Assembly (NCBI GenBank): GCA_963736705.1
Contig: CAVTPV010000001.1
Location: forward strand, 485,232-549,231
Source of the DNA: an uncultured Actinomycetota bacterium
GTDB lineage: Bacteria > Actinomycetota > Thermoleophilia > RBG-16-64-13
DNA: 64,000 bases
Direction: 5' to 3'
In this document: piece after piece, positions 23,076 through 48,721 of the stretch
How the letters are laid out: every line of letters starts with the position of its first letter
How positions within the stretch are numbered: the stretch's first letter is position 1
The notes under the pieces: model-generated
Told to the model about the DNA's origin: nothing
The model's input: the letters and a program-made list of their open reading frames with translations, nothing else
The model's database searches: none
Program-made: the position numbers and the translations under genes

Positions 23076-24384
23076 CTACAGAGCCTGCTCGACGAGCTCG
23101 AGCACGTCGATGGCCTTCATGGTGGTACCGTCGCCCGCCTTCGCGCTGCCCAGGATGCGGTTGCAGCTGGAGCACGCGGTGGCGATGGCCTCGGCGCCGG
23201 TGGACTTGGCTTCGTCCAAGCGTTTGGAGGCGGTGAAGTCGGCGAAGTCCGGATACGCCTGCGGGACGGCGCCGCCGCCGCCGCAACACCAGGCCGCTTC
23301 CTTGGTGCGCTCCATCTCCACCAGTTCCAGGCCGGGGATGGCTTTGAGCACGTCACGCGGCGGCTCGTAGACGCCGAAGGCGCCGTTGTAGCGGGGGCGC
23401 GGGGGATCGTAGACGACGGCCTGGCCGAAGATCTTGGCTTCCTCGCCGTCCCAGGGGACGTGGTCCTCGCCCTGGCGGCCGAGGTGGCAGGGGTCGTGAT
23501 AGGTGACCTTCATGTTCACCGGCTTGGTGAGCTTGAGCGAGCCCTCCTTGATGAGCCTGTCGGCCACCTGGGTGGTGTGCAGCACTTCGATGTCGTAGCG
23601 CGTCGCCGGCCACCTGGGGATAGAGGCGCTTGAAGGTCCAGAAGCAGGTGGCGCAGGGGGTGACGATGGTCTTGACGCCGGCCGCCGCCCACTTCTCGAG
23701 GTTGGCCTTGGCGGCCGCTGCGAAGTCGTCGCGGTAGCCCATGTCGTAGGCCTTGCCGCCGCAGCAGCCCTCGTCGCTGTCGATGGCGAAGTCCAGGCCG
23801 CCCTTGGCCAGCACCCGCGCGGAGGCCTGCACGACGTTGCGCAAGGCCGGGTTGAACGAGTAGAGGCAGCCGGCGTGGAACAGGACGTCGGTCTTGGCGA
23901 CGGTGTCGGGGCCGGCCGCCGCACCGGGGGCCGCCAGCTTCTTGAGGCCCAGTCCGTCGGACCAGTCGGCGCGTTTGGCCTGCGGGGCGCCGGCCATGTT
24001 GCCGGAGTCGCGCAGCTTGGCGATGACGCCGGGGTAGGCCGGCGGGACGACGCCCTGCTGGTTGAGGTGATACCGGAACTCCCGGGCCCCGTCGAGGATC
24101 CACATGTCGTAGCGGCATACCTTGCAGCTGACGTCGCAGTTGCCGCAGAGCGTGCATTCGTAGACGACGTCCACCAGTTCGTCGGTGATCTCGCTGCGCC
24201 CGTCGGTGAGCGACAGCAGGGCGACCATGCGGCCACCACCGGAATACGCGTGGAAGTGCCGGTAGTCGACACTCGGGCATCCCTTGGCGAACTCATGGCT
24301 GGTGATGCGGTCCTGCGGGATCCATTTGCAGTACGAGCAGCGGTTGCACCGCATCGCTACCGCTCGATAATCATCAAGTGCCAT
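23076..24384 (-). pseudogene. (Fe-S)-binding oxidoreductase with two CCG domains (GlcF/HdrD-like), frame break near 23600
   Basis: CNRCSYCKWIP and CTLCGNCDVSC cluster motifs. CCG motifs DEGCCGGKAY and AAWCCGGGG. Pieces in ORFs 23353..24384 and 23076..24296. Confidence 0.75.
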
Positions 24385-31362: not shown

Positions 31363-32285
31363 GGAGTCTGCGCAGCCGGCCGCGGCCGCCTCATGGCCAG
31401 CAACCCCTGCACCGCCAATACCAACAGCGCGCCGATGATGCAGGCCATACCGACTGCCTCCAGCGCGGTCACCCGCTCGTGCAGCACCAACGCCGCCGCC
31501 CCGATGCCGATCACCGGCGTGGCCAGCGTGCTGATGCCCGCCACTCCGGTGGGCAGCACCTGCAGTACGTAGAGCCACAGCGCCCAGGCCAGCGCCGTCG
31601 CCGGGATGACGTTGTAGGCCAACGCCCCGATGAAACCGCCCGTCCACTCGATGGGCCGAGCATGCACGAACACCGCGATGACGATGATGGGAATGCTGCC
31701 GTAGAGCATCTGCCAGGCGGTCAGGTTGATGACGTCCGTGGGACCCCGGGCGCGGATCTTCTTGGCCACGATGGCGCTGAGCGCCCAGCAGAGGCCGGAG
31801 CCGAGAGCGAGCAGCTTGCTCTGCAGACTGCCGCCCAGGTGCGCCGGGTCGAGCACCAGCACCAGTCCGGCCAGCGAGAAGGCCGCGGCCAGCCAGCCAA
31901 GGCCACGAACGCGCTCCCCGAGCAGCGCCCAGCCGAGGATCATCGCCCAGAAGGGCATGGTGTAGACGAGCGCCGACACACGCCCCGCGGCCCCGCTCTG
32001 CAGGGCCCACATCAGCAGGCCGATCATGCCCGTGGTCTGGAGCAGGCCGAGGACGATGGTGAGCCCGATCTGCGTGGGCTTCATGGGCCGGCGCAGGATG
32101 GCGAGCACGATGAACAGGGCCACGGCGCCGAGGCCGCAGCGGAGGGCGGTGAAAGGCCAGGGGTCGGCGTGTTGCAGACCCTGCTTCATGACCACCCAGT
32201 TGTAGCCGAGGAAGATGGACTGGAGCGCCATGGCCCCGATGGCCAGGGGCATCCGGTAATGGTCTTCTCGTCGCGAAGCGGTCAT
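31359..32285 (-). CDS. EamA/DMT-family transporter
   Basis: Met at 32285 overlaps the upstream stop (ATGA). About 10 hydrophobic helices, typical of a duplicated EamA architecture. Confidence 0.75.
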   Translation of the reverse strand: MTASRREDHYRMPLAIGAMALQSIFLGYNWVVMKQGLQHADPWPFTALRCGLGAVALFIVLAILRRPMKPTQIGLTIVLGLLQTTGMIGLLMWALQSGAAGRVSALVYTMPFWAMILGWALLGERVRGLGWLAAAFSLAGLVLVLDPAHLGGSLQSKLLALGSGLCWALSAIVAKKIRARGPTDVINLTAWQMLYGSIPIIVIAVFVHARPIEWTGGFIGALAYNVIPATALAWALWLYVLQVLPTGVAGISTLATPVIGIGAAALVLHERVTALEAVGMACIIGALLVLAVQGLLAMRRPRPAAQTP

Positions 32286-33187
32286 GAACGAGGCCTTTCC
32301 TTTCGACGCAATGCCGGCCGGGACAGGTCGGCCGTGCTGGTCCACGCGGCCCCCGCCGCCGCCAGCACGATGGCCACGATGCCGAAGAGTTCACGCAGCG
32401 CGAGCCGCTGAGACAGGATGACAAACCCCCACAAAGCCGCGATGGCGGGCTCGATGCTGAGCAGCACCCCGTACGTGGAGGGGCGGACCCGTCTTATGGC
32501 CGCCAGCTCCAGCGCGTAGGGCAGGGCCGAAGACATCACGGCCACGGCGAGGCCGAGCAGCAGCGCCCGCCCGTGGCCCCCGAACTTGACGCCCGTCCCG
32601 ATGAAGATGGGAGTCAGCACCACGCTGGATCCCACGAGCATGAATATGGTCGCCCGCAGCGAGCCGACGTTCCGGGTGGCGAGCTTGGCCGAGAGGATGA
32701 ACGCCGCCCAGCATCCGCCGGCGACGAGCGCAAAGACGATGCCCAGCCAGGTGGTGGTCCCGCTTGGCTCGGCCAGCAGCGCGATGCCCGCGGCCGCCAG
32801 CACCACCCAAAGCCCGTCCAGCAGACGCCGCGACCCCGCTACCGCCACCCCCAGCGGCCCCAGGAACTCGATGGCCACCACGATGCCCACCGGCGCCCGG
32901 CTGATGGCTTCGTAGAAGGCGAAGTTCATAGCCAGCAGACTGACGGTGAGGGCCAGCAGCGGCAGCCGCTCCCCCTTGGCCGGCATCCGGAGCAGCCGCG
33001 GCCGGGCGGCCACCAGTATCAGCGCGGCCAGCGCGGTCCGCAGCCACAGCGCCTCCACCACGCCCACGTCCTCGATGACCAGGACGGCCACAGCGGAGCC
33101 GGCCTGCATGAGCAGGCCCACGACGACCACCAGCATGACCGCTGTGGCCGAGTCGCGCCGGGTGATCTGTGGGGCGTTCGCGAACAC
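32282..33187 (-). CDS. EamA/DMT-family transporter
   Basis: 301-aa polytopic membrane ORF, translationally coupled to the downstream EamA gene. Confidence 0.75.
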   Translation of the reverse strand: MFANAPQITRRDSATAVMLVVVVGLLMQAGSAVAVLVIEDVGVVEALWLRTALAALILVAARPRLLRMPAKGERLPLLALTVSLLAMNFAFYEAISRAPVGIVVAIEFLGPLGVAVAGSRRLLDGLWVVLAAAGIALLAEPSGTTTWLGIVFALVAGGCWAAFILSAKLATRNVGSLRATIFMLVGSSVVLTPIFIGTGVKFGGHGRALLLGLAVAVMSSALPYALELAAIRRVRPSTYGVLLSIEPAIAALWGFVILSQRLALRELFGIVAIVLAAAGAAWTSTADLSRPALRRKERPRS

Positions 33188-33279
33188 CTTCTGAAAGTAC
33201 AGCGGCGGACCCCATCAGGCAAACCCGAGGTGCGCGCGGGGTGGGACCGACGCCCACCTAGTGAACACAAAGGAGTATC

Positions 33280-34593
33280 ATGGCGGCCACTTCCCCCTCG
33301 TTAGCAAGGATATCGGAGGCCTCTTTGCGCGCAATGTGGCGCACCCCTGCGGGGCGCGGTTTCATCATGCTGGCTGTCATGACGGCCTGCTACGGCTTCG
33401 CGTCGAACGCCCAGGGCAACATCGTCACGAACTACCTGGAAGAGGTGCTCCACTTCTCCGGGCCGCAGTTCGGGTACTTCACGGCCATCCGGGAAGTGGG
33501 CGGACTCGTCCTCATCTTCCTCACCGCGCTGATGTACCGGATCTCCCTGCAGCGGGTCACGGCGGGCGCCCTGGTGATACTCGGTCTGGGCTTCGCGTTC
33601 TTCACCGTGGCCCACGACTTCGTCACCCTCATCCCCTGGGTGCTGCTCAGTAGCTTCGGCCTGCACACCATCCTGCAGACCCAGTACTCGCTCGGGTTGA
33701 CGCTCACCACCCAGGACAAGAGCGGCACCGTCCTCGGCAGGATAGCCGCGTTCGGCCAGGCGGGCACGCTCCTGGCCTACGTGATGGTCTTCTTCCTCTT
33801 CCAGTTCAAGTGGATGTCGTTCAAGTGGACGTTCATCATCCTCGGCGTGGTCGCGGTGCTCGGCGCCGTCGCCATCTTTCGCTTCCCGCACCTGCACGAG
33901 GGAGAGACAAGGAAGGTCGCGCCAAAGCGGGAGCGCATCGTCTTCCGGCGGGCCTACAAGTACTACTACTGGCTCAACCTGCTCGATGGAGGCCGCCAGC
34001 AGATCTTCTTCTCCTTTGGTGTGTGGGTGCTGGTGAAGGAGTTCGATTTCAAGGTCCCGCAGGTATCGCTGCTGCTCATCGCCGTGACGTTCGTCAGTAT
34101 GATCAGTTCGTCGTGGATAGGGCGCTCCATCGACCGGCTGGGAGAACGCCGTTCCCTTTCGTATATCAACATCCTGTACATCGTGGCGCTGGGCGGCTAC
34201 GCCCTCTCGGGCAACGTGTGGCTGGCCTGCTTCTTCTACCTCATCTACGCGGTCATCTCCCCGTTCTCGTACCTTGGGGCGGCCGTGTACCTGCGGAAGA
34301 TCGCGGTGCCCGAGGACGTCGCCTCCAGCCTCTCCATGGGCGTGACACTCCTTCACGCCACGGCGGTGGTGGTGCCGGTGGTGGCCGGCTACATCCTCAC
34401 CTTCACCGGCTACCAGATACCGTTCTTCATCGCCTGCGGGTTCGCGCTCGCCAACTTCTTCGTGACCCTGGGCCTCGACCCGGTCAAGCAGCGCTGCGCG
34501 GCGCGAGTGGCCCTGGATGAGGCGGCCCTGGCCGAGGCCGCGCGGGGAGATGCGGCCGAAGCGGAGTTGCGGCACGTGGGAGGGGACGCCTAA
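33280..34593 (+). CDS. MFS transporter
   Basis: 437 aa with about 12 hydrophobic segments and a central loop (HEGETRKVAPKRERIVFRR). Confidence 0.8.
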   Translation: MAATSPSLARISEASLRAMWRTPAGRGFIMLAVMTACYGFASNAQGNIVTNYLEEVLHFSGPQFGYFTAIREVGGLVLIFLTALMYRISLQRVTAGALVILGLGFAFFTVAHDFVTLIPWVLLSSFGLHTILQTQYSLGLTLTTQDKSGTVLGRIAAFGQAGTLLAYVMVFFLFQFKWMSFKWTFIILGVVAVLGAVAIFRFPHLHEGETRKVAPKRERIVFRRAYKYYYWLNLLDGGRQQIFFSFGVWVLVKEFDFKVPQVSLLLIAVTFVSMISSSWIGRSIDRLGERRSLSYINILYIVALGGYALSGNVWLACFFYLIYAVISPFSYLGAAVYLRKIAVPEDVASSLSMGVTLLHATAVVVPVVAGYILTFTGYQIPFFIACGFALANFFVTLGLDPVKQRCAARVALDEAALAEAARGDAAEAELRHVGGDA

Positions 34594-34696
34594 GAAAGAC
34601 CGGGGCCCCCGGGTTCGCACCCGGGGGCCCCTCGTGTTTCCGATTCCGCCCGTCCGGCCGCCGGTCGAGACCGGGCCTTGACGGCTGGTGAAAGAC

Positions 34697-37919: not shown

Positions 37920-39155
37920 ATGAAGCGGTTACTGGTGATCGGTGCGGGCACGGCGGGCACGATGGTGGTGAACCGCCTGCGGCGGATCCTCGACGTCGAT
38001 GAATGGAAGATCACCATCGTCGACCCGGCTGGAGACCCACTACTACCAACCGGGCTTCCTGTTCATCCCCTTCGGCATGTACAGCAAGAACGACGTCGTC
38101 AAGCCCAAGCGGGACTTCATCCCGGCCGGCGTCGACGTCATCAAGGCCGCGGCCGACGTCATCGAGCCGGACAAGAACCAGGTGAAGCTGGTGGATGGCG
38201 ACGATCCTCCACTACGACGTCCTGGTGGTGGCCACCGGCACCGACATCCACCCGGAGGAGACCCCCGGTCTGCAGGGGCCCGAGTGGCGCCGCTCCATCT
38301 TCGACTTCTACAGCATCGACGGCGCTCAGGCGCTGGCCAAGCACCTGCGCACCTGGCAGGGCGGCCGGCTGGTGTTGAACGTGGTGGAGAACCCCATCAA
38401 GTGCCCGGTCGCGCCCCTCGAGTTCATCATGCTGGCCGACTGGTTCTTCCACGAGCAGGGCATCCGCGACCGGGTCGAACTGATCTACGCCACCCCGCTG
38501 CCCGGCGCGTTCACCAAGCCGATCGCCTCCAAGTATCTGGGCGACATCCTGGAGGGCAAGGGCGTCAAGGTGGTGCCGGAGTTCCTGGTGGAGCACGTGG
38601 ACCCGGAAGCCAAGAAGATCGTCCACTACGACGAGACCGAGTTGGAGTACGACCTCCTGGTGACGGTGCCGCTCAACAAGGGCGACGACCTCCTGGCCCG
38701 GTCGGGCATGGGGGACGAGCTCAACTACGTCCCCGTCGACAAGCACAGCTTCCTGTCGCCCGACCACCCGAACGTGTTCGTGCTCGGTGACGCAGCGTCG
38801 CTGCCCACGTCCAAGAGCGGTTCGGGCGCCCACTTCGCGGTCGACTGTTTCGCCGCCGAACTTCCTCCGCTACCTCGACGGGCTCGATACCAACCCGCCC
38901 TACGACGGCCACACCAACTGCTTCATCGAGTCGGGGTTCGGCAAGGGGCTGCTGATCGACTTCAACTACGACGTGGAGCCGCTGCCCGGCCGCTACCCGC
39001 TGCCCGGCATCGGCCCGTTCGCGTTGCTTCAGGAATCGGAGATGAACCACTGGGGCAAGATGATGTTCCGCTGGATGTACTGGAACATCCTGTTGAAGGG
39101 CAAGGAACTACCATTGCCGGCGCTCATGAGCATGTCCGGCAAGTACAGGAAGTAG
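37920..39155 (+). pseudogene. sulfide:quinone-oxidoreductase-like FAD-dependent oxidoreductase, 3 frame breaks
   Basis: MKRLLVIGAGTAGT (ORF 37920), ETHYYQPGFLFIPFG (ORF 37999), ENPIKCPVAPLEF...VFVLGDAAS (ORF 38195), and the C-terminus in ORF 38787..39155. Confidence 0.75.
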
Positions 39156-39165
39156 GGGTGGCGTG

Positions 39166-39899
39166 ATGGAAGAGCGTCCCATCTCCGCGGCGCCCGCCGC
39201 GCCCGGCCCGGCGGCGGAGCCCGCCGCGGCAGTGCCCCCGGCCACGGACCTCGCCGCTCTCGATCAGAAGCTCGACGTCCTCTCGGTGCAGGTGAACTAC
39301 CTCATCGAACAGGCGCAGGAGACGGCCCGCCGTCAGCGGGAGCGCTCGGAGCTGCTGCACGACGCCCTGCCCATCGCCAACGACGCCCTCGGCTTGGTGA
39401 CCGAGCAGTTGGACGAGATCCAGGGATACATCGACCTCTCCGACATCCTCCGCCTCCTCAAGCGGCTGCTCCGGAACGGCCGCAACATCGACAGGATGCT
39501 CGATCAGCTCGAAGGCCTCATGGACCTGGCCTCGACGGCCGGCCCGCTGGCCAACGACGTCTTCGGAAGGATCACCGACCAGCTCGAGGTGGCCGAGCAA
39601 CGCGGCTACTTCGCCCTCGCCAAGGGTGGCGCCCGTGCGATCGACCGGGTGGCCGGCTCCCTGACGCCCGAGGACCTCGATTGCCTGGCCGACAACGCCG
39701 TGGTGGTGATCTCGGCCTTCCAGGGACTCTGCCAGCCGGTGGACGCCCCGTCGTTCCGAGGGCTGCTGCGCCAGATGCGCGATCCCGGACGTGCGCCGGG
39801 GCCTCGTCGATAGTGATGCGCATGCTGCGCGCCGTCGGCGCCGAAGCGGCCGCCAGACAACAGGCGAGCGCCGCGCCCGGCAGCGGCGCGACCGAATAG
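39166..39899 (+). pseudogene. DUF1641-domain protein, frame breaks near 39790-39810
   Basis: ORF 39163..39813 holds the coiled N-terminal part. A DUF1641-like tail, ...LLRQMRDP / DVRRGLV / IVMRMLRAVG, is spread over three frames; stop at 39899. Confidence 0.65.
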
Positions 39900-39937
39900 A
39901 GACGAACCAGGAATCCCCGACCAGGAGGAACGACCGA

Positions 39938-40258
39938 ATGGCTACCCGGGTCATCGCAGGCAAAGAAGTGCAGGTCAACGACGAAGGCTTCATGACCGAC
40001 GCCACCGAGTGGAACAAGGACATCGCGGTGGCCATCGCGGTGGAGGAGGGCATCCCGGAACTCACCGACGACCACTGGAAGGTGATCGACTGGGCCCGCG
40101 ACCAAGCCAAGAACGCGAACTGGAAGTCCCCGACGCTCCGCCAGATCACGACGGGCACCGGGGTCAACACCAAGCAGCTCTTCGCGCTGTTCCCGAAGGG
40201 GCCGGCCAAGAAGGTCGCCCGCGTGGCCGGACTGGGCAAACCCGAAGGTTGCGTGTAA
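39938..40258 (+). CDS. TusE/DsrC-family sulfur-relay protein (single C-terminal Cys)
   Basis: Met at 39938. The C-terminus ...VAGLGKPEGCV matches the DsrC/TusE PxGCV tail. Ala sits where DsrC carries its second Cys, 11 residues upstream of the terminal one. Confidence 0.8.
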   Translation: MATRVIAGKEVQVNDEGFMTDATEWNKDIAVAIAVEEGIPELTDDHWKVIDWARDQAKNANWKSPTLRQITTGTGVNTKQLFALFPKGPAKKVARVAGLGKPEGCV

Positions 40259-40269
40259 GGAGGCAGCAC

Positions 40270-40777
40270 ATGGCCGACGACGACCACCCGCCACATCGCG
40301 TTCATCTGTTCGAAGGGCGATCTGGACATGGCCTATCCCGCGCTGGTCATGGGCTGGGCCGCGCTCGGCAACGGCGTGGACGTGAGCATCTTCTTCACGT
40401 TCTGGGGCCTGGACATGATCACCAAGCACCGGATCGACAAGCTGCAGCTCGCCCCGGTGGCCAACACCAGCATGAAGATGAGCATGATGATGCCGTTACC
40501 GAAGAACTGGGGCATCCCCAACCTCATGGGCGTCCTCCCGGGCATGACCCGCTTCGCCACGTGGATGATGCGCAAGAAGATCAAGGAGGTCGGCGCCCCG
40601 CCGGTGCGCGAGTACCTGGAGATGATGCAGGACGGCGGCGCCAAGCTCTACGCCTGCAAGATGAGCTGCGACATGATGGGCCTCGGCAAGGGGGACTTCA
40701 TCGACGGGGTCATCGACGGCACCACGGCCGCCGACTTCATCGACATGACCGAGGGGGCGCAGATCGTCTTCATCTAG
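40270..40777 (+). pseudogene. DsrE/DsrF-like (DrsE_2-type) protein, frame break within the first 10 codons
   Basis: ATG 40270 (MADDDHP) runs in one frame. The conserved ...HIAFICSKGDLDMAYPALVMGWAALGNGVDVSIFFTFWGL... runs in the +1 frame (ORF 40328..40777 lacks this strand). Confidence 0.7.
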
Positions 40778-40886
40778 GAGTGGGGACGGCGCCACGCCTG
40801 GCGCGGATTGAGGATTCTCGTGAGGGCCGGAGCACGCCGCTTCGGCCCTCTTGGTTTGCCGGCCCGAGATCCTGTTGCCCCAAGTA

Positions 40887-40916
40887 TTGACAGGTGACGC
40901 TATCTACGTATATCAT
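40887..40916 (+). promoter_or_regulatory. sigma70-like promoter with imperfect palindrome (ArsR operator candidate)
   Basis: TTGACA (40887-40892), then a 16-nt spacer and TATATC, or an 18-nt spacer and TATCAT. The dyad TATCTAC|GTATATA (40901-40914) overlaps the -10. Confidence 0.5.
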
Positions 40917-40958
40917 CAACTCTGCAAATACGGGATTGCAGGAGTGGCCTCGGTGGAT

Positions 40959-41468
40959 ATGCGCCCTCTCTTCAAGTTGCACGCTTCGGTCTGCCAAGCT
41001 CTTTCGAGCGAGCACCGCTTGGCCATCATGTACGGCCTCAAGGAAGGCGAGCGCCGGGTGAGCGACATCGCCGACGACCTGGGCATCTCCGTGCACAACG
41101 TCTCCCAGCACCTGCGCATCCTGCGGCAGGCTCTTCTGGTCAAGCCTCGCAAAGAGGGCCAGACGGTCTACTACTCCATCGCCAATCCCAAGTTCATGGA
41201 AGCCTGCGCCCTCATGCGCCAGGCCCTGCTCGAAGAGCACCAGGCCGAGGGTACGGCGCTCCACGCCGCCGCCGGGAGTGTTCGACCCCGTGGCGGCCAT
41301 GTCCACCATGTACGAGAACGGCATCGACGCGGATCACGATTCCGCGGGCAAACCGGCAACGACCCCCGAATCAGGCGCAAACGCATAACGAGCGATCAAC
41401 CGAGCAACGTTCGGACGAAAGGAAGACGATCATGGACCTCTCCACACTCAAAGGCGACAAAGTCGTAG
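40959..41468 (+). CDS. ArsR/SmtB-family transcriptional regulator (3' tail uncertain)
   Basis: LSSEHRLAIMYGLKEGERRVSDIADDLGISVHNVSQHLRILRQALLVKPRKEGQTVYYSI. The Arg-rich tail after about residue 110 overlaps the tusA start and may be out of frame. Confidence 0.7.
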   Translation: MRPLFKLHASVCQALSSEHRLAIMYGLKEGERRVSDIADDLGISVHNVSQHLRILRQALLVKPRKEGQTVYYSIANPKFMEACALMRQALLEEHQAEGTALHAAAGSVRPRGGHVHHVRERHRRGSRFRGQTGNDPRIRRKRITSDQPSNVRTKGRRSWTSPHSKATKS

Positions 41469-41677
41469 ACGCGCGCGGCACCTCCTGCCCCGGCCCCATC
41501 CTGGCCGCGAAGAAGGGCATGGCCGACGTCAAGGTCGGCGAGATCATGGAAGTGCTCGCCACCGACTCCGGCACCCAGAAGGACCTGCCCGCCTGGTCCA
41601 AGAAGCTGGGCCACGAGTACCTCGGTTTCGTCGAAGAGCCCGGCTACATGAAGCTCTTCGTCAAGAAGCTCAAGTAA
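41432..41677 (+). CDS. TusA-family sulfurtransferase
   Basis: 81 aa. VVDARGTSCPGPILAAKKGM carries the conserved CPxP active-site motif. Confidence 0.85.
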   Translation: MDLSTLKGDKVVDARGTSCPGPILAAKKGMADVKVGEIMEVLATDSGTQKDLPAWSKKLGHEYLGFVEEPGYMKLFVKKLK

Positions 41678-41701
41678 CGCACGGACGACCAAGGACCGGC
41701 C

Positions 41702-42153
41702 GTGACCGCAAGCGCGGGGTTCGCCCCCAAGATACTGGTCTTCTCGACCAACAACATCTCCGATCCGGGGATCGACCTGGCGGGTAGCTCGCATCTGCAC
41801 TACTCGCCGACCGTCATGGTCATCAGCATGCCCTGCACCAGCGGCATCCGGCCGGATTGGATCCTGTACGCCATCGAGCAGGGGTTCGATGGCGTCTTCA
41901 TCGCGTCGGACGGGGAGGAGTGCGCCTTCCTGCCCGACTGCGCGGAGCGGAGTTCGCACATCATGGCCAGCGCTCAGGAGATGCTGAAGGAGCGAGGGCC
42001 ACGAGCCCCGGCGGGTGAAGATGGCCGCCGTCTGCTCGGTGTGCGCCGACCCGTTCGTCAACTACATGGGCGAGTTCTCCAAGGCGCTCGCGGAGCTCGG
42101 GCCCTCCACCGACCGGGCCCGCGGCCGGACCGTCCGAGGAGCAGGCCGCATGA
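41702..42153 (+). pseudogene. MvhD-like (methyl-viologen-reducing hydrogenase delta-type) FeS protein, about 2 frame breaks
   Basis: KILVFSTNNISDPGIDLAG...VISMPCTSGIRPDWILYAIEQGFDGVFIASDGEECAF, then ..PRRVKMAAVCSVCADPF in another frame. One frame ends in a TGA overlapping the next ATG (ATGA at 42150-42153). Confidence 0.7.
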
Positions 42154-44916
42154 AGTACGACGCGCTGGTCATCGGCAGCGGCATCAGCGGCATGGAGTCC
42201 GCCCTCAAGCTCGGCGACATGGGCTACAAGGTGCTGGTGGTCGAGAAGGAGGCCAGCGTCGGCGGCAAGATGATCCTGCTGAGCAAGGTCTTCCCCACGC
42301 TCGACTGCGCCAGCTGCATCTCCACGCCCAAGATGGGCGCCACCATCCACCATCCCAACCTCGACGGTGCTCACCTACTCCGAGGTGGACAGCATCGAGC
42401 GCCAGAACGGCGAGCTTCAAGGCCAAGATCAAGCAGAAGGCCCGCTTCGTGGACGAGGAGGCCTGCACCGGCTGCCGGCAGTGCGAGATGGTCTGCAGCG
42501 TGGCCGTGCCCGACGAGTTCAACGCCGACCTGGTGTCGCGCCGGGCGGCCTACATCGCCTTCCCGCAGGCGGTGCCCAAGAAGGCCGTCATCGAGCGGCG
42601 AGGGCACCTCGCCCTGCACCTACACCTGCCCGGCGGGCATCAAGGCCCACGGGTACGTGGCGCTCACCCGCAGCGGCGAGTACGAGAAGGCCTTCCAGCT
42701 CGTGGCCGACGCCACCCCGTTGGTGGGCAGCCTGGGCCGGGCCTGCTACGCGCCCTGCGAAGAGGAGTGCACGCGGGGAGACCTCGAGGGCCCGGTGAAC
42801 ATCCGGCGCATCAAGCGCTTCCTGGCCGACACCCACTACGCCAAGCCGAGGGTGGCGCCCGAGAAGCCGGCGCCCAACGGCAAGAAGGTGGCCGTCGTCG
42901 GCTCGGGCCCGGCGGGCCTCACCGCCGCCTGGCACCTGGCCCGCAAGGGCTACGAGGTCAAGATCTTCGAGGCGGCGCCGCTGGCCGGCGGCATGCTCCG
43001 CCTGGCCCTGCCGCCCTACCGGCTGCCCAGCGAGGTGGTCGACGAGGACGTGGCCAACGTCACCGACCTCGGCGTGACGATCGTCACCGACACCAAGGTC
43101 GAGGACCTGGAGGCCCTCAAGGCCGAGGGCTACGACGCCGTGCTGGTCGCCATCGGCACCCATCTGGGCACCAAGCTGCGGGTCCCCGGCGAGGACCTGC
43201 AGGGTGTGACTGCGCGCCACCGAGTTCCTCCGGGCCGCCAAGCTCGGCGAGCCGCTCGAGGTGGAGGGCAAGCGCGTGGTGGTCATCGGCGGCGGCAACG
43301 TGGCCATCGACGCGGCCCGCACCGCGCTCCGCCTGAAGGCCGCTTCGGTGCGAGGTGCTCAGCCTGGAATCGCTGCAGCAGATGCCGGCCCACGCCTGCA
43401 GGAGATCGCAGGAGGCCAAGCCGGAGGGCGTCACCTTCCGCAACTCCTGCGGCGTGCGCAACTTCGAGGGCGACGGACAGCGTCCGGAGCATCGTGCCCG
43501 ATGCGCTGCGTGTCCGTGTTCGACGAGAAGGGCCGCTTCAGCCCCAAGTACTCCGACAAGACGCTCGGGCACCATCGAGTGCCGACCTGGTGATCGTGGC
43601 CGCCGGCATGCGGCCCGACTCGGGCGAGTTCGGCCTGCCGATCAACCCCTCCGGCACCATCAGGTCGACGCAGCGACACCCTGCAGACCGAGCATACCCT
43701 ACGTGTTCGCCGCGGGCGACGTGGTGCTGGGCCCGTCCATGATCACCACCGCGGCCGGCCACGGCCGCCGGGCGGCGTACTTCATGGACCGCTGGCTGCA
43801 GGGCCAGCCCATCGACGCGCTACGACCTCGACACCCCGCTCCCGATCGTGGACAAGGCCGACGTGCTCGGCCGGCAGATGACCTGCTACCGGGAGATCAC
43901 GCCCAAGCGGCCCGCGCGAGATCGTGCAGGCTGGCCCCGGGCGAGTTCTATCCCGACGAGGAGACCCTCACCGAAGACGAGGCCTCTGCCTGCACCGGCC
44001 GCTGCCTCGACTGCGGCGTCTGCTCGCGAGTGCCACGCGTGCGTGGACATCTGCCCGGCCGACTGCATCGACCTGAACATGAAGGGCGAGGAGATCGAGG
44101 TCGAGGTGGACGCGGTGGTCCTCGCCACCGGCTACACGCTCTTCCCGGCCGAGCTCAAGCCGCAGTACGGCTACGGCAAGTACAAGAACGTCATCACCGG
44201 CATGCAGATGGACCGCCTGCTGGCCCCCACCCGGCCGTACAACGCGCGTGGTGCGCCCGGGCGACGGCAAGGTGCCCGACAACATCGCCTTCATCCTCTG
44301 CACCGGCTCCCGCGACGAGACCCTCGGCAACCCGCTCTGCTCGCGCATCTGCTGCATGTACTCCGTCAAGCACAACCAGCTGATCATGGGCGCGCTGCCG
44401 CTGGCCGACGTCACCGTCTACTACATGGACATCCGCACGCCGGGCAAGGGCTACGACGAGTTCTACGAGCAGGCCAAGGCCATGGGCGCCAACTTCGTGA
44501 AGGGCCGCGTGGCCGAGCGTCACCGAGAAGGAGGACGGCAACCTGGTCCTCACGCTACGAGGACATCGAGAACGGCACCCTCACCGAGGCGGAGCACGAC
44601 CTGGTGGTGCTCGCGGTGGGCGTGCGGCCCAACGACGAAGCGCGCCCACGCTGTTCGCCGACGGCGAGCTGGCGCTGGACGACTACGCCTACGTGGGCGA
44701 AGCCGACGAGGACATGAACCCCGGCGCCACCAACATCCCCGGCGTGTTCGTGGCCGGCGTCGGCCTCGGGCGTCAAGGACATCCCCGATTCGATCCTTCA
44801 CGCGGGCGCCGCGGCGGCGCAGGCGGCCGCTCACCTGGAGAGCAAGCGGACGGCCGGCCGAGACGGCGGCCGACGCCGGCGACCGAGCCGCGACGTCGCG
44901 GAGGTGGCGCCGATGA
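42150..44916 (+). pseudogene. large HdrA-like flavoprotein interrupted by a GltD/NfnB-like NAD(P)H module (HdrL-like), many frame breaks
   Basis: Read across frames: KYDALVIGSGISG, CASCISTPKM, CTGCRQCEMVC. Then the GltD-like block: CPAGIKAHGYV, KKVAVVGSGPAGLTAAWHLARKGYEV, VVVIGGGNVAIDAAR, VFAAGDVV. Then CTGRCLDCGVCSECHACVDICP. Then the HdrA C-part: FILCTGSRD, CSRICCMYSVK, GVFVAGV..KDIPDSI. Confidence 0.7.
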
Positions 44917-46733
44917 GCACCGAGACCGGCAAGCGGCGCATCGGCGTCTACGTCTGCCATTGCGGCGGCAACATCTCCGACTACGTCGACGTGGACAAGG
45001 TGGTCGCGGCGCTGGAGGGCGACCCGGACGTGGTGGTGGCCAAGACGGCCATGTTCACCTGCTCCGACGCCACCCAGCAGGAGATCATCGAGGACATCCA
45101 GGAGCAGGGCCTCGACGGCATCGTCGTGGCCTCCTGCTCGCCCAAGCTGCACACCTTCACCTTCCGCGAGGTGGCCAAGCGGGCGGGGCTCAGCCCCTTC
45201 CAGTACACCCAGGTGAACGTCCGCGAGCAGTGCTCCTGGACCCACACCGACGACCACGAAGGCGCCACCGACAAGGCCACCAAGCTGGTCAAGGCCGGCA
45301 TCGGCCGCACCCGGCTGACGGTGCCGCTGGAGCCGATCGTCGTGGAGACGGTGCCCAAGGCGGTCGTCATCGGCGGCGGCATCACCGGTCTGCGGGCGGC
45401 CCTCGGGCTGGCCGAGATCGGCCTCGCGCGTGTTCCTGGTGGAGAAGGAGGCGCAGCTCGGCGGCTGGGCCGCCGGGTTCGGCGAGATGTACCCGTACGG
45501 CAAGAACGGCCGGGAGCTGGTGGCCGAGCTGATCGAGAAGGTGCGCGGCAACCCGGACATCACGGTGTTCACGAACGCCGAGGTCACCGGCAAGGCCGGC
45601 AGCTTCGGCAACTACGAGGTGGCCATCCGGGTGAACGGCGGCGCCGGCGAAGCCGCGGCCGAGCGCCGAGACCATCACCGTGCGAGGCGGGCTCCATCAT
45701 CGTGGCCACCGGCTTCGACGCCTACCCGGTGGCCGAGGACGAGTTCGGCTACGGCCTGGACGGCGTGGTCACGCTGCCCGAGTTCAAGCAGCTGGTGGAC
45801 GGCGCCGAGCGGCCCGCTCGCAGTACGACGGCAAGCCGGTCAAGAACATCGTCTACATCTACTGCGTGGGCAGCCGGCAGGACGCGGACGAGGTGGACGA
45901 CGCCCACGAGTACTGCTCCCGCTACTGCTGCACGGCCGCGGTGCACGCCTCCCTCGCAGGTGGCGGCCAAGCCCGGGCAAGCGTCCACCAGTACCACCTG
46001 CACCGCGACATCCGCACCTACGGCAAGTACGAGATGCTGTACGACGAGTCGCTCAACAAGGGCTCCGTCTACCTCAAGGTGCCCGACGACGAGCCGCCGG
46101 TGGTGACGCGCGACGACGAAGACCGGCCGCCTGCTGGTGACCACCCGCGACCTTCTGAGCCGAGGGCGAGGAGATCGAGATCCTGGCCGACCTGGTGGTG
46201 CTGGTCACCGGCATGGTGCCGCGCGAGAACGACGACCTGATCAAGACCCTCAAGCTGCCCGTGGGCAAGGGCGGCTTCTTCAACGAGATCCATCCCAAGC
46301 TGCGCCCGGTGGAGACCGTGGTCGACGGCGTCTACATCTGCGGCACCTGCCAGCAGCCGAAGAACTCGGCCGAGGCGGTCGCCTCCGGCCTGGCGGCGGT
46401 CACGCAGAGCGCCTCCATCCTCAAGCGCGGCTTCGCCGAGCTCGACCCGCTGGTCGCCATGGTCGACACGGACCTCTGCACCTGGTGCGGCACTGTGCCT
46501 GGAGGCCTGCCCCTACGACGCGCCCCGGCAGGTGGAGGAGGACGGCAAGAAGGTCGCGCTTCATCGACAAGACCGCCTGCAAAGGCTGCGGCGGCTGCGT
46601 GCCCGGTCTGCCCGGTCAAGACGCCATCGACCTCGAGGGCTACACCGACGCCCAGATCCGGGCCATGATCGACGGCCTGCTGTCGGAGCCGGCGAATGCC
46701 CGGATGCGTGACCGCAGGAGGTGCTCGGCATGA
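44913..46733 (+). pseudogene. hdrA: HdrA-like heterodisulfide-reductase subunit A flavoprotein, about 8 frame breaks
   Basis: ATG 44913 after GGAGGTG. IGVYVCHCGGNISDY, AVVIGGGITG, YIYCVGSRQ, CSRYCC, GVYICGTCQQPK, and a C-terminal CKGCGGCVPVCP-like ferredoxin motif. The stop overlaps the next ATG (ATGA at 46730-46733). Confidence 0.75.
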
Positions 46734-47028
46734 GCACGCCTGAATACTGCGCCGGCAGCCGGCGCGAGCGACGCCGGAAGCCCCGGCACCGCGATCCGTC
46801 CGCGAGATCATCCGCGACGAGCAGATCATGCGGGCGCCGCATCCTCAAGCTGCTCGACGACGGCGCCTCTGACCATCCCCGAGATCGCCGAGGCCTCGGG
46901 CGTCCCGACGTCACGAGGTGACCTTCTGGGTCATGGGCATGCGCAAGTACGGCTAGGTGCGCGAGGACAAAGAGGTCACCGACGAGGGCTACTTCCGGTA
47001 CCAGGCGATCGAGAGAGAGATCGGATGA
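46730..47028 (+). pseudogene. small winged-helix-like protein with frame breaks and an in-frame TAG
   Basis: ATG 46730 after GCAGGAGG. Pieces: ..ILKLLDDG.., ..IPEIAEASGVP.., ..EVTFWVMGMRKYG-TAG-VREDKEVTDEGYFRYQAIEREIG. The stop overlaps the next ATG (ATGA at 47025-47028). Confidence 0.4.
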
Positions 47029-48202
47029 CCACGCGACTTGAATCCCGAGCTCGTCGACGACCTCGGCGCCTGTACGGCGCCGAGGACGTGCAGAAGTGCT
47101 ACAACTGCGGCAACTGCACGGCCACCTGCTCGCTCGCCGACCAGCACGACAACTTCCCGCGCAAGTGCATGCACGCCCTGCAGATGGGCATGGAGAAGAA
47201 GCTCAAGGGCAGCCTGGAGCCCTGGCTCTGCTACTACTGCGGCGAGTGCTCCACGGACTGCCCGCGGGAGGCCTCAGCCGGGCGAGACCATGATGAGCCT
47301 GCGCCGCTGGTTGACCGTCGCGCTATGACTTCACCGGCATCGGCCGCCTGTTCTACCGGCGCCCGTGGATCGAGATCGCTCGTGGTGATCATCGTGGCCC
47401 TGCTCACCGGCGTCGGCTTCACCCTGTTCGGCGTGTTCGGCGGCGACATCCACCAGTACACCGGCGAGAACTCGTTCCTGCCGGCGGAGACCGTCCACAT
47501 CTTCGACTGGATCCTCGGCGGCGGTGCTGCTGGCCTTCCTCATCCCCAACATGATCCGCATGTGGTGGTTCACGCTCGGCCGGGACACCCTGGGCCGGGA
47601 CCGCACCAGGCAAGCTGCCGCGCATGCGCCTACCTCAAGTCCGTCTACCTGTTCCCGCTGCACTTCATGACCCAGAAGCGCTACGCGCAGTGCGAGCGCA
47701 AGCGGCCCTGGGTGATCCACCTGGCTCTGATGCTGAGCTACGTGACCATGCTCATGCTCATCATGTTCTTCCTCAAGTACATGTGGAACGGGCCCAAGAT
47801 CGACTGGCGCGTGCACGTGTTCGGCTACCTGGCCAGCGCCGGCCTGATCGCCGGCGACCACTCTGGGCGCATCGTCGGCCGCCTCAAGAAGATGGAGGCG
47901 CAGCTACAAGCACTCCCACGAGAGCGACTGGATGTTCCTGATCCTGCTGCTGGTGGTGGCGCTCACCGGGGTGCTGCAGCACGTGCTGCACCGCGCCGGC
48001 GCCGACGTGGCGGCCAACGTCTCCTACGTCGTGCACCTGATGGCGGTGGTCCCGATGCTGGGACTGGAGGTGCCCTTCAGCAAGTGGTCGCACATGGCCT
48101 ACCGGCCGCTGGCCATGTACTTCTCGGTGCTCCGCAAGCAGATCGTGCCGGTACCGGCCGAAGAAGAGGCGCCCGAGCGGCATGCAGACCGAAGCCGCCT
48201 GA
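47025..48202 (+). pseudogene. QmoC-like protein: HdrC-type di-cluster domain fused to an HdrE/NarI-type multi-TM domain, about 8 frame breaks; 3' end uncertain
   Basis: CYNCGNCTATC and CYYCGECSTDCP, then hydrophobic helices (LVVIIVALLTGVGFTLFGVF, VIHLALMLSYVTMLMLIMFFL, WMFLILLLVVALTGVL, VVHLMAVVPMLGL) spread over frames. Candidate stop at 48200-48202. Confidence 0.6.
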
Positions 48203-48240
48203 CCGACGACCCGACCCGAGATCGCGACAGAAGGAGTCCC

Positions 48241-48721
48241 ATGGCAGACACCCACCAAGAAGACCATCATCCTGTTCAGCGGCGACTTCGACAAAGTCAT
48301 GGCCGCCCTCATCATCGCCAACGGCGCTGCCGCGATGGGCGACGACGTCACCATCTTCTGCACCTTCTGGGGCCTCAACGCGCTCCGCAAGCCGCAGAAG
48401 GTCAAGGCGAAGAAGAAGTTCCTGCAGGGCATGTTCGGCATGATGATGCCGCGCGGCGTCAACAAGCTCGGCATGTCGAAGATGAACTTCGCCGGCATGG
48501 GCCCGCAGATGATGGGCATGGTCATGAAGGGCGAGGGCGCCATGACCCTGCAGCAGCTCCTCGACGCGGCCATCGAGCAGGGCGTCAAGCTGGTGGCCTG
48601 CACCATGACCATGGACCTGCTGGGCTTCAAGAAGGAAGAGCTGCTGGACGGCGTCGAGTACGCCGGCGTGGCCGCCTATCTGGGCGAAGCCGACGAGGCG
48701 AACGTCAACCTGTTCATCTAG
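48241..48721 (+). pseudogene. DsrE/DsrF-like (DrsE_2-type) protein, paralog of 40270..40777, frame break within the first 6 codons
   Basis: AAGGAG then ATG 48241 (MADT..). The conserved KKTIILFSGDFDKVMAALIIANGAAAMGDDVTIFCTFWGL runs in the +1 frame. Removing one C from the CCC at 48251-48253 restores the frame. Confidence 0.7.

Follow-up and report, generated by a model that had tools for sequence, protein, structure and literature searches.

The locus described here raises two questions: whether a gene whose conserved motifs are scattered over three reading frames encodes a single protein, and what such a protein might do. The window, meaning the whole stretch of DNA that was analysed, comprises 64,000 nucleotides from an uncultured Actinomycetota bacterium (GTDB lineage Thermoleophilia; RBG-16-64-13; GenBank assembly GCA_963736705.1, contig CAVTPV010000001.1, here C1:485232-549231) and has a G+C content of 0.64-0.70. 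The assembly amounts to 3.23 Mb in 6 contigs, with an estimated completeness of only 71%. The original prediction, made without database searches, had placed at positions 42150-44916 a flavoprotein resembling HdrA of the heterodisulfide reductases (Hdr) with an internal NAD(P)H-binding module of the GltD/NfnB type, an architecture termed HdrL. We found that 42150-44916 encodes an HdrL-type protein of ~900 aa, consisting of the flavin adenine dinucleotide (FAD) domain of HdrA with a ferredoxin insert that is itself interrupted by a complete NfnB/GltD module. The gene, hdrL, therefore belongs to a known kind, the HdrA-NfnB fusion having been described in 2009 (HdrL) and again in 2022 (ANME-1 HdrA-NfnB, PMC9012536). 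An explanation combining this architecture, errors of assembly, a conserved gene cassette and a mechanism derived from them is considered likely as a whole.

Reading frames and domain architecture of HdrL

The features of the gene are as follows.

42150..44916, + strand: entire HdrL-type gene (HdrA flavoprotein enclosing an NfnB/GltD module); compared with the same-genus ortholog it has 21 single-base insertions
42150..42602, + strand: HdrL residues ~1-158, first half of the thioredoxin-reductase-like FAD domain of HdrA, with GSGISG and TLDC61ASC64 (5odc_A 145-291); also holds the first CxxCxxCxxxC motif of the inserted ferredoxin domain
42603..44009, + strand: HdrL residues ~159-621, NfnB/GltD-like insert (Pfam Pyr_redox_2 and Fer4_20; PDB 4ylf_B, 5jca_L, 2vdc_G, 8oh5_C and 9bov_A; Foldseek)
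44010..44916, + strand: HdrL residues ~622 to the end, second CxxCxxCxxxCP motif and second half of the HdrA FAD domain (5odc_A 289-565); also holds the FAD-proximal cluster motif CTGSRD...CSRICC and the GVKDIPDSI FAD contact

The limits of hdrL, an ATG at 42150 and a TGA at 44914-44916 that overlaps with the following gene's ATG (hdrA'), were both judged reasonable, and no open reading frame (ORF) longer than 575 aa lies between them on the + strand. Three-frame translation placed KYDALVIGSGISG, CASCISTPKM, CPAGIKAHGYV, VAVVGSGPAGL and KDIPDSI in phase 0, VVVIGGGNVAIDAAR, FILCTGSRD and CSRICCMYSVK in phase 1 and VFAAGDVV in phase 2. Every motif quoted in the original prediction was located on the + strand within these limits, with matches far beyond chance, and despite their spread over three frames the motifs are colinear with one protein of ~900 residues. 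In a GC3-phase plot the coding phase persists for runs of ~250 nt across 41.4-49.3 kb, whereas most of the window shows runs of ~1000 nt or more. A hand-stitched HdrL of 903 aa matched Pfam Pyr_redox_2 at E=7.7e-51 (residues 244-538) and Fer4_20 at E=3.3e-13 (residues 153-230).

Orthologs of hdrL were sought by six-frame searches of 30 related genomes. That of a same-genus relative (G004) is 85% identical over query residues 2-899, contains no stops and translates uninterrupted to 920 aa (P0002); the residue numbers used here refer to this protein. Six further orthologs are full-length, single-frame and free of stops, with 69-78% identity over the whole length. Ungapped tblastn of the ortholog against the window yielded 17 colinear segments alternating among all three frames, a disruption that the original prediction had recognised in speaking of a frame-corrected protein. 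Gapped tblastn forced the alignment into one frame at 49.8% identity and masked the frameshifts; ungapped high-scoring segment pairs and DNA alignment were used instead.

HMMER alignment of the intact ortholog to HdrA of 5ODC (5odc_A) paired HdrL residues 12-158 with HdrA residues 145-291, and HdrL residues 622-895 with HdrA residues 289-565. The alignment breaks inside the inserted ferredoxin domain, after C113/116/119/123 and before C626/629/632/636-P. No counterpart was found in HdrL of the N-terminal domain of HdrA (5odc_A 1-144) or of its C-terminal ferredoxin domain (566-654). Sequence searches of the PDB returned HdrA structures at E~1e-99 to 1e-101 and chains of the NfnB/GltD family at 8e-61 (NfnB, 4ylf_B) to 1e-49. 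The insert, residues 159-621, matches NfnB 4ylf_B, NfnI-L 5jca_L and the glutamate synthase small subunit (2vdc_G and 6s6s_G), its best matches being the NfnB-like domains of StnC (8oh5_C) and NfnABC (9bov_A and 9n5u_A). Its motifs run in the order of an Fe-S region (C163, C167, C206, C210 and C214), VAVVGSGPAGL as the FAD site, VVVIGGGNVAIDAAR as the NAD(P)H site followed by SLES, FAAGD, a linker and RCLDCG. The original prediction had estimated ~450 residues between the HdrA halves, flanked by ferredoxin-type Cys motifs; the measured distance is 463 residues (159-621), and the flanking motifs are C113xxC116xxC119xxxC123 and C626xxC629xxC632xxxC636P.

The intact ortholog was modelled with AF2 from an alignment of 95 sequences, with a predicted local confidence (pLDDT) of 86.6 and a predicted template modelling score (pTM) of 0.81. 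Foldseek superposed it on NfnB/GltD chains with template modelling (TM) scores of 0.75-0.80 of the target and root mean square deviations of 2.6-3.3 Å, and on HdrA chains with TM up to 0.92 of the modelled target. No Foldseek match covered both the NfnB and the HdrA halves, the highest query-normalised TM being 0.47, and neither sequence search nor Foldseek found a solved full-length relative of HdrL in the PDB copy searched. The observation behind the original prediction is confirmed, and its HdrL-like reading is supported.

Conservation was counted over 95 HdrL family sequences. Twenty Cys residues of HdrL are invariant in 95/95, and C206 is conserved at 90% or more. The invariant residues include C61/C64 (equivalent to HdrA Cys194/Cys197), both ferredoxin motifs, C163/C167/C210/C214, the ligands of the FAD-proximal cluster (C718/C731/C735/C736) and an extra pair, C620/C623. 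The FAD motif VAVVGSGPAGL, the second dinucleotide motif VVVIGGGNVxxDAAR and FAAGD are invariant or nearly so, and the GltD-like block therefore keeps its predicted NAD(P)H- and FAD-binding residues. The extra pair lies in RCLDCG (~43990-44010), just before the second ferredoxin motif, and is shared with StnC 8oh5_C and NfnABC 9bov_A/9n5u_A. Nothing in HdrL matches the first ~30 positions of the Fer4_20 model, and C620/C623 may supply the ligands that this truncated region lacks.

Occurrence of the fusion in other genomes

At least 600 HdrL loci were found among GTDB species genomes. In the best 80 of these, one intact hdrL ORF is present at 76 loci, nearly all of 886-940 aa. Since the gene is a single intact ORF in close and distant relatives alike, a resolution of the corrected sequence into two or three separate genes can be discounted. 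The taxonomic survey showed the fusion in more than eight phyla: the best 80 loci come from Actinomycetota (Thermoleophilia, Gaiellales, Acidimicrobiia and Propionibacteriales), Chloroflexota, Bacillota (including Desulfofundulus thermobenzoicus DSM 14055), Gemmatimonadota, Acidobacteriota, Dormibacterota and one Thermoplasmata archaeon, among others. Cultured carriers include D. thermobenzoicus DSM 14055 and a Propionicimonas sp. In the protein database at least 7786 significant HdrL-like clusters were found (8000 candidates scored); the 120 clusters listed are ~830-950 aa long, and names given in the sources are 'heterodisulfide reductase subunit A(-like polyferredoxin)' or 'FAD-dependent oxidoreductase'.

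The interest of the locus lies in the HdrL family and its operon and not in the damaged copy of the window, which adds little. HdrL fusions combine two candidate bifurcating flavins in a single polypeptide; they amount to at least 7786 protein clusters and occur in at least 600 species-level genomes of soil, peat and sediment origin. When this assembly is annotated automatically, the entire operon will be overlooked or split up.

The complementary HdrA and the gene cassette

The genes that accompany hdrL in the window are listed below; positions of frame-broken genes are approximate where stated.

44913..46733, + strand: HdrA', complementary HdrA (tblastn segments; ortholog L018:14191-16044)
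40938..41288, + strand: ArsR-family regulator at the head of the cassette (tblastn, 90.6% identity to the G004 ortholog over 117 aa; ortholog Pfam HTH_5, E=4e-11)
41432..41677, + strand: TusA sulfur carrier, 81 aa, intact ORF (93.8% identity to the G004 ortholog; ortholog Pfam TusA, E=1.8e-21)
41690..42150, + strand, ends approximate: MvhD/FlpD-like Fe-S subunit (two tblastn segments in different frames)
46730..47020, + strand, approximate, frame-broken: small conserved ORF, helix-turn-helix-like (97-aa gene at the same position in a relative)
47025..48190, + strand, approximate, frame-broken: QmoC-like membrane subunit (tblastn mapping)
48241..48720, + strand: DsrE2-like sulfur carrier (tblastn with the L022 protein, NCBIfam SulfCarrDsrE2, E=4.7e-26; a DsrE_2 gene lies here in a relative)

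The original prediction had taken the gene following hdrL for a canonical second HdrA, which proved incorrect. The ortholog of HdrA' aligns to 5odc_A 4-234 and 313-651 only, and HdrA' therefore lacks the inserted ferredoxin domain (5odc_A 235-312); it also has Asn and Ala at the positions of HdrA Cys194/Cys197. HdrL, which possesses the inserted ferredoxin domain and Cys194/Cys197 and is devoid of the N- and C-terminal domains, complements it. Neither protein shows the canonical four-domain layout of HdrA, in which an N-terminal Fe-S domain, the FAD domain, the inserted ferredoxin domain and a C-terminal ferredoxin domain are combined, HdrL being without 1-144 and 566-654 and HdrA' without 235-312. 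This complementarity in the ferredoxin domain and Cys197 suggests that HdrL and HdrA' may form an asymmetric heterodimer, like the halves of one HdrA dimer. Heterodimers have been proposed for the tandem HdrA genes of anaerobic methanotrophic archaea (ANME), which are complementary in the N-terminal domain and Cys197 (Chadwick et al. 2022, PMC9012536).

Together these genes constitute a translationally coupled, widely conserved cassette of the order (arsR)-tusA-mvhD-hdrL-hdrA'-small ORF-qmoC-like-(dsrE2). On a contig bearing an 87%-identical hdrL ortholog the genes are, in order, ArsR, Pyr_redox_2 (SQR-like), DUF1641, DsrC-family, DsrE_2, ArsR, TusA, FlpD/MvhD (141 aa), HdrL (903), HdrA-like (589), a 97-aa ORF, a Fer4_8/Fer4_17 protein (387), DsrE_2 and DsrE, with 4-nt overlaps from mvhD through to the 387-aa gene. 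The corresponding genes map onto 37920-48720 of the window. Among the 80 loci, homologs of TusA are present at 79, of MvhD at 78, of QmoC-like subunits at 73 and of DsrE2 at 75, and the order around hdrL is nearly constant. A literature search by gene names found no description of a tusA-mvhD-hdrL-hdrA'-qmoC-like-dsrE2 cassette.

The predicted MvhD-like neighbour was borne out as the FlpD/MvhD gene directly upstream of hdrL, with a 4-nt overlap in the relative. In the window this gene carries at least one single-base insertion, near 41995; its ortholog matches Pfam FlpD at E=2.2e-27 and the NCBIfam model of the VhuD/HdrA2 C-terminus. Flanked by hdrA' and the qmoC-like gene, the small ORF overlaps its neighbours at the stop and start codons. 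The QmoC-like subunit combines an HdrC-type 2x[4Fe-4S] region with six predicted transmembrane helices (six hydrophobic segments), and the homolog from locus L022 matches NCBIfam qmoC at E=1.2e-50 over model positions 7-358 of 360. No CCG-domain gene (an HdrB/HdrC-type partner) was found within the cassette, and the gene map of the relative shows no nfnA or gltB neighbour of hdrL. CCG-domain genes are numerous elsewhere in the genome, and a CCG partner for HdrL may be encoded in trans. With a QmoC-like membrane subunit, TusA/DsrE2 and no HdrBC, the complex appears Qmo-like, a further correction to the original prediction.

Two further observations concern the surroundings of the cassette. The region 37920-40780, upstream on the same strand, encodes an SQR-like Pyr_redox_2 flavoprotein, DUF1641, DsrC/TusE-family and DsrE-like proteins and forms a second sulfur-handling module adjoining the Hdr/Qmo-like cassette; in relatives this module has an ArsR of its own. 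At ~23157-23886 on the - strand, ~18 kb upstream of the cassette, lies a gene for an HdrB/HdrD-like protein with two CCG domains.

Proposed function of the HdrL/HdrA' complex

In the mechanism proposed here, HdrL would pair with HdrA' as an obligate asymmetric heterodimer in which C64 of HdrL (the equivalent of Cys197) would complete the N-terminal cluster of HdrA', and MvhD would dock on the C-terminal ferredoxin domain of HdrA'. The inserted ferredoxin arm of methanogen HdrA passes low-potential electrons to free ferredoxin (MvhADG-HdrABC paths, summarised in PMC9012536). In the present complex the only such arm, that of HdrL, would connect, via [4Fe-4S] clusters of the NfnB type, with a second FAD and with NAD(P)(H), probably NADH. 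The QmoC-like subunit would replace HdrBC and link the FAD-proximal cluster to the menaquinone pool as the high-potential exit. The complex would thereby connect NAD(H), quinone and a third partner reached via MvhD, plausibly sulfur on TusA/DsrE2, and could operate in either direction, by flavin-based bifurcation (NADH oxidation) or confurcation (NAD+ reduction). The fuller proposal, that tusA-mvhD-hdrL-hdrA'-small ORF-qmoC-like-dsrE2 encodes an undescribed, widespread membrane enzyme whose three-flavin HdrL/HdrA' heterodimer would couple NAD(H), menaquinone and TusA/DsrE2 sulfane sulfur by bifurcation/confurcation and without an HdrB/DsrK-type subunit, is put forward tentatively and must be regarded as doubtful. 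Knowledge of what the cassette does would close a gap in the understanding of how abundant uncultured groups such as Actinomycetota and Chloroflexota connect NAD(H), quinones and sulfur.

Several points weigh against this account. That NAD(P)H is bound, that a heterodimer forms, that quinone is coupled and that TusA/DsrE2 play a role are all deductions from sequence and synteny, and the searchable literature yielded no enzymology for any HdrL member. The qmoC match, at 173 bits, falls below the NCBIfam cut-off of 300 bits. The cassette is also devoid of an HdrB/DsrK-type CCG subunit, and thus of any known site at which disulfide or persulfide chemistry could be catalysed.

In an alternative reading, HdrL/HdrA' would act as the flavoprotein core in a soluble, bifurcating complex of the Hdr type and not in a Qmo-like one, with CCG-domain partners of the HdrB/HdrD type encoded elsewhere; NAD(P)H would then reduce ferredoxin and a protein disulfide or persulfide (DsrC/TusE-like, TusA). 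It was in such a role that HdrL was first proposed, as in HdrABC/HdrL of Syntrophobacter (PMC2702500, PMC5947623). Many CCG-domain genes occur in the genome, one of them inside the window at ~23.2-23.9 kb, a second HdrL paralog stands directly beside CCG-domain genes, and a DsrC-family gene and sulfur carriers adjoin the cassette. However, it is a six-helix QmoC-like protein, and not HdrBC, that follows hdrA' with overlapping stop and start, and this holds at 73/80 loci across phyla; the cassette contains no CCG gene, and no dsrA was found in the genome. A soluble complex is accordingly thought decidedly unlikely.

Canonical Qmo function and dissimilatory sulfate or sulfite reduction were both rejected, since searches of the (incomplete) genome gave nothing above cut-off for dsrA or for aprA, the best aprA match reaching 58.6 bits against 641.75.

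Origin of the frame interruptions

Indels were counted by DNA alignment to the same-genus relative, at 85-86% nucleotide identity. Within hdrL there are 21 single-base insertions as against one deletion of 1 nt and one of 2 nt, both in the variable C-terminal tail. A further 12 single-base and 2 two-base insertions lie in hdrA', with 3 single-base insertions in arsR-tusA-mvhD and 5 in the block from the SQR-like gene to DsrC. The total over 37.9-46.7 kb is 41 single-base insertions against 1 single-base deletion, and two control blocks at 31.4-34.6 kb, aligned to the same relative, contain no single-base insertions. Most of the inserted bases are C or G, and none of the sites inspected in hdrL falls in a homopolymer run.

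After correction, hdrL has a dN/dS (ratio of nonsynonymous to synonymous substitution rates) of 0.26 relative to the same-genus ortholog (dS 0.39) and no in-frame stop, while two pairs of intact genes gave 0.20-0.22; the value for locus L011, whose sequence was in contig orientation, was meaningless and was left out. Corrected HdrL keeps 160/161 of the positions invariant among the 95 family members, the one lost residue falling within a stretch that holds two adjacent indels. Short-read contigs from public data lack the extra base at 42599, 44245/6, ~44515-7 and 44551/2, the only four sites that could be checked. The insertion-biased spectrum, the dN/dS of 0.26, the absence of stops, the 160/161 invariant positions and the 76/80 intact loci indicate that the frame breaks are very probably consensus errors of a patchy, long-read-like metagenome assembly and not the result of pseudogenisation. 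That close relatives carry one intact gene likewise makes the 21 insertions in hdrL look like errors of assembly. Contig depth over the operon spikes to 100-1300 in public metagenome runs, from which we would guess that reads of related populations were recruited to the conserved operon during polishing.

Some observations sit uneasily with errors of assembly. A spectrum composed of insertions only, at sites other than homopolymers, is unusual, and the insertions are densest in the two most conserved genes. Public runs carry only short contig pieces over hdrL, and the source reads were not found among them: any one run contains <=8% of the 31-mers of 42100-45000, as against up to 74% for the flank at 31400-34600.

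Were the breaks genuine, hdrL, hdrA', mvhD and the qmoC-like gene would form a true pseudogene cluster, decayed by frameshift and non-functional in this strain. Four consecutive genes do lack an intact ORF in the assembly, and the focal 8 kb contains 30 phase switches, compared with a genome median of 13 and a 99th percentile of 28. Spontaneous bacterial indels are not, however, insertion-only, as the ratio of 41 insertions to 1 deletion would demand, and the dN/dS, like that of intact orthologs, the stop-free frame and the retention of all but one invariant residue all speak against decay, as does the missing inserted base at four sites in short-read contigs of other samples. Comparable patches also occur elsewhere in the same 6-contig, low-completeness assembly: about ten other 8-kb patches are equally dense in frame breaks, including C5:668-682 kb, C5:1436-1452 kb, C4:212-226 kb, C1:442-450 kb and C1:586-598 kb. 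Pseudogenisation is therefore judged very improbable.

Programmed frameshifting or an alternative genetic code was rejected in view of the 21 irregular +1 events, the absence of a shared slippery motif and the intact orthologs.

Nucleotide specificity

The conserved motifs are consistent with the NAD(P)H coupling that had been predicted for the HdrL complex. At the site that follows the second Rossmann strand (HdrL residues 411-413, ~43370-43385 in the window), 53/95 family members have YRR, a motif shared by the NADP(H)-binding NfnB and StnC, and 42/95, that of the window among them (LSLES), have (S/C/T)LE. Rossmann folds that prefer NADH are classically recognised by an acidic residue where that strand ends. 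Under this general rule, the replacement of the NADPH-type YRR by SLE suggests that NADH is the more likely nucleotide in the SLE clade, to which HdrL of the window belongs, and the split between YRR and xLE suggests separate NADPH-using and NADH-using subfamilies of HdrL. This split and the HdrL/HdrA' complementarity are concrete, testable predictions. That the embedded module binds no pyridine nucleotide in the SLE clade, serving only as a flavin/Fe-S wire or accepting another hydride carrier, is extremely improbable: the NADPH-type YRR has been replaced in 42/95 members, that of the window included, but the GGGNVxxDAAR dinucleotide-binding motif is conserved, as strongly is the remainder of the module, and the replacement would place at the end of the second strand an acidic residue of the NADH type.

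Comparison with known systems

The statement in the original prediction that HdrL fusions are known yet uncharacterised agrees with the literature found (PMC2702500, PMC5947623, PMC12142623, PMC9012536) and with the absence of a full-length match among the solved structures searched. Published examples include HdrL1-3 of Desulfobacterium autotrophicum HRM2 and the HdrABC/HdrL/MvhD cluster Sfum_0819-0824 of Syntrophobacter fumaroxidans; each of these copies lies beside mvhD, one locus has tandem hdrL/hdrA, and a feed of NADH electrons into sulfur metabolism has been proposed (PMC2702500, PMC5947623). HdrL was detected in the proteome of S. fumaroxidans under sulfate-reducing conditions (PMC5947623) and has been invoked in Desulfurivibrio dismutans (PMC12142623). 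Compared by published descriptions only, the D. autotrophicum and Syntrophobacter loci have hdrBC, FeS or dsrABC genes and include some selenoproteins. The window locus, in contrast, has a QmoC-like subunit, TusA and DsrE2, uses Cys, and stands in a Thermoleophilia-like actinobacterial metagenome-assembled genome without dsrA or aprA.

The inserted ferredoxin domain of HdrA9/10/11 of ANME-1 is split by an NfnB-like stretch of ~500 aa, for which two potential bifurcating flavins and coupling to NADPH have been proposed (PMC9012536). HdrL shares the topology of HdrA9-11, and its complementarity to HdrA' resembles that of the tandem HdrA pairs described in the same paper (PMC9012536). The contexts differ, that of ANME-1 being archaeal and methane-oxidising with partners of the HdrBC/FdhAB type, whereas HdrL of the window, from a bacterium, has an NADH-type motif and is encoded together with QmoC-like, TusA and DsrE2 partners.

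With NfnB/GltD-type modules (NfnAB 4YLF, NfnI 5JCA and the NfnB-like domains of StnC 8OH5 and NfnABC 9BOV/9N5U), HdrL residues 159-555 share the fold and motifs at 34-35% identity. Unlike the free subunit of ~460 aa, the module in HdrL is embedded in HdrA, has no NfnA/GltB partner gene and carries SLE in place of YRR. QmoABC of sulfate reducers resembles the cassette in uniting a pair of HdrA-related flavoproteins with an MvhD-type module and with a membrane subunit, QmoC, that has an HdrC-like FeS region and a multi-helix b-type domain and to which the subunit of the window is only QmoC-like. The window cassette differs from it in a qmoC match below cut-off, a separate mvhD, an NfnB module and sulfur-carrier genes, and no AprAB was found. 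Features that the cassette has in common with MvhADG-HdrABC (5ODC) are the FAD domain of HdrA, its FAD-proximal CxGSRD...CxxxCC cluster, the motifs of the inserted ferredoxin and an MvhD partner; unlike that complex, the cassette has no hydrogenase and no HdrBC, and the functions of the HdrA homodimer are split between two polypeptides.

The second HdrL paralog of the genome, at C5:1101992-1107144, is 35-49% identical and contains only two frame changes. It lies directly downstream of CCG-domain (HdrB-like) matches and upstream of another HdrA-like gene, an HdrB/HdrL-type cluster that is closer to the Syntrophobacter arrangement. A class of HdrL paralogs at 36-42% identity is present in most of the related genomes.

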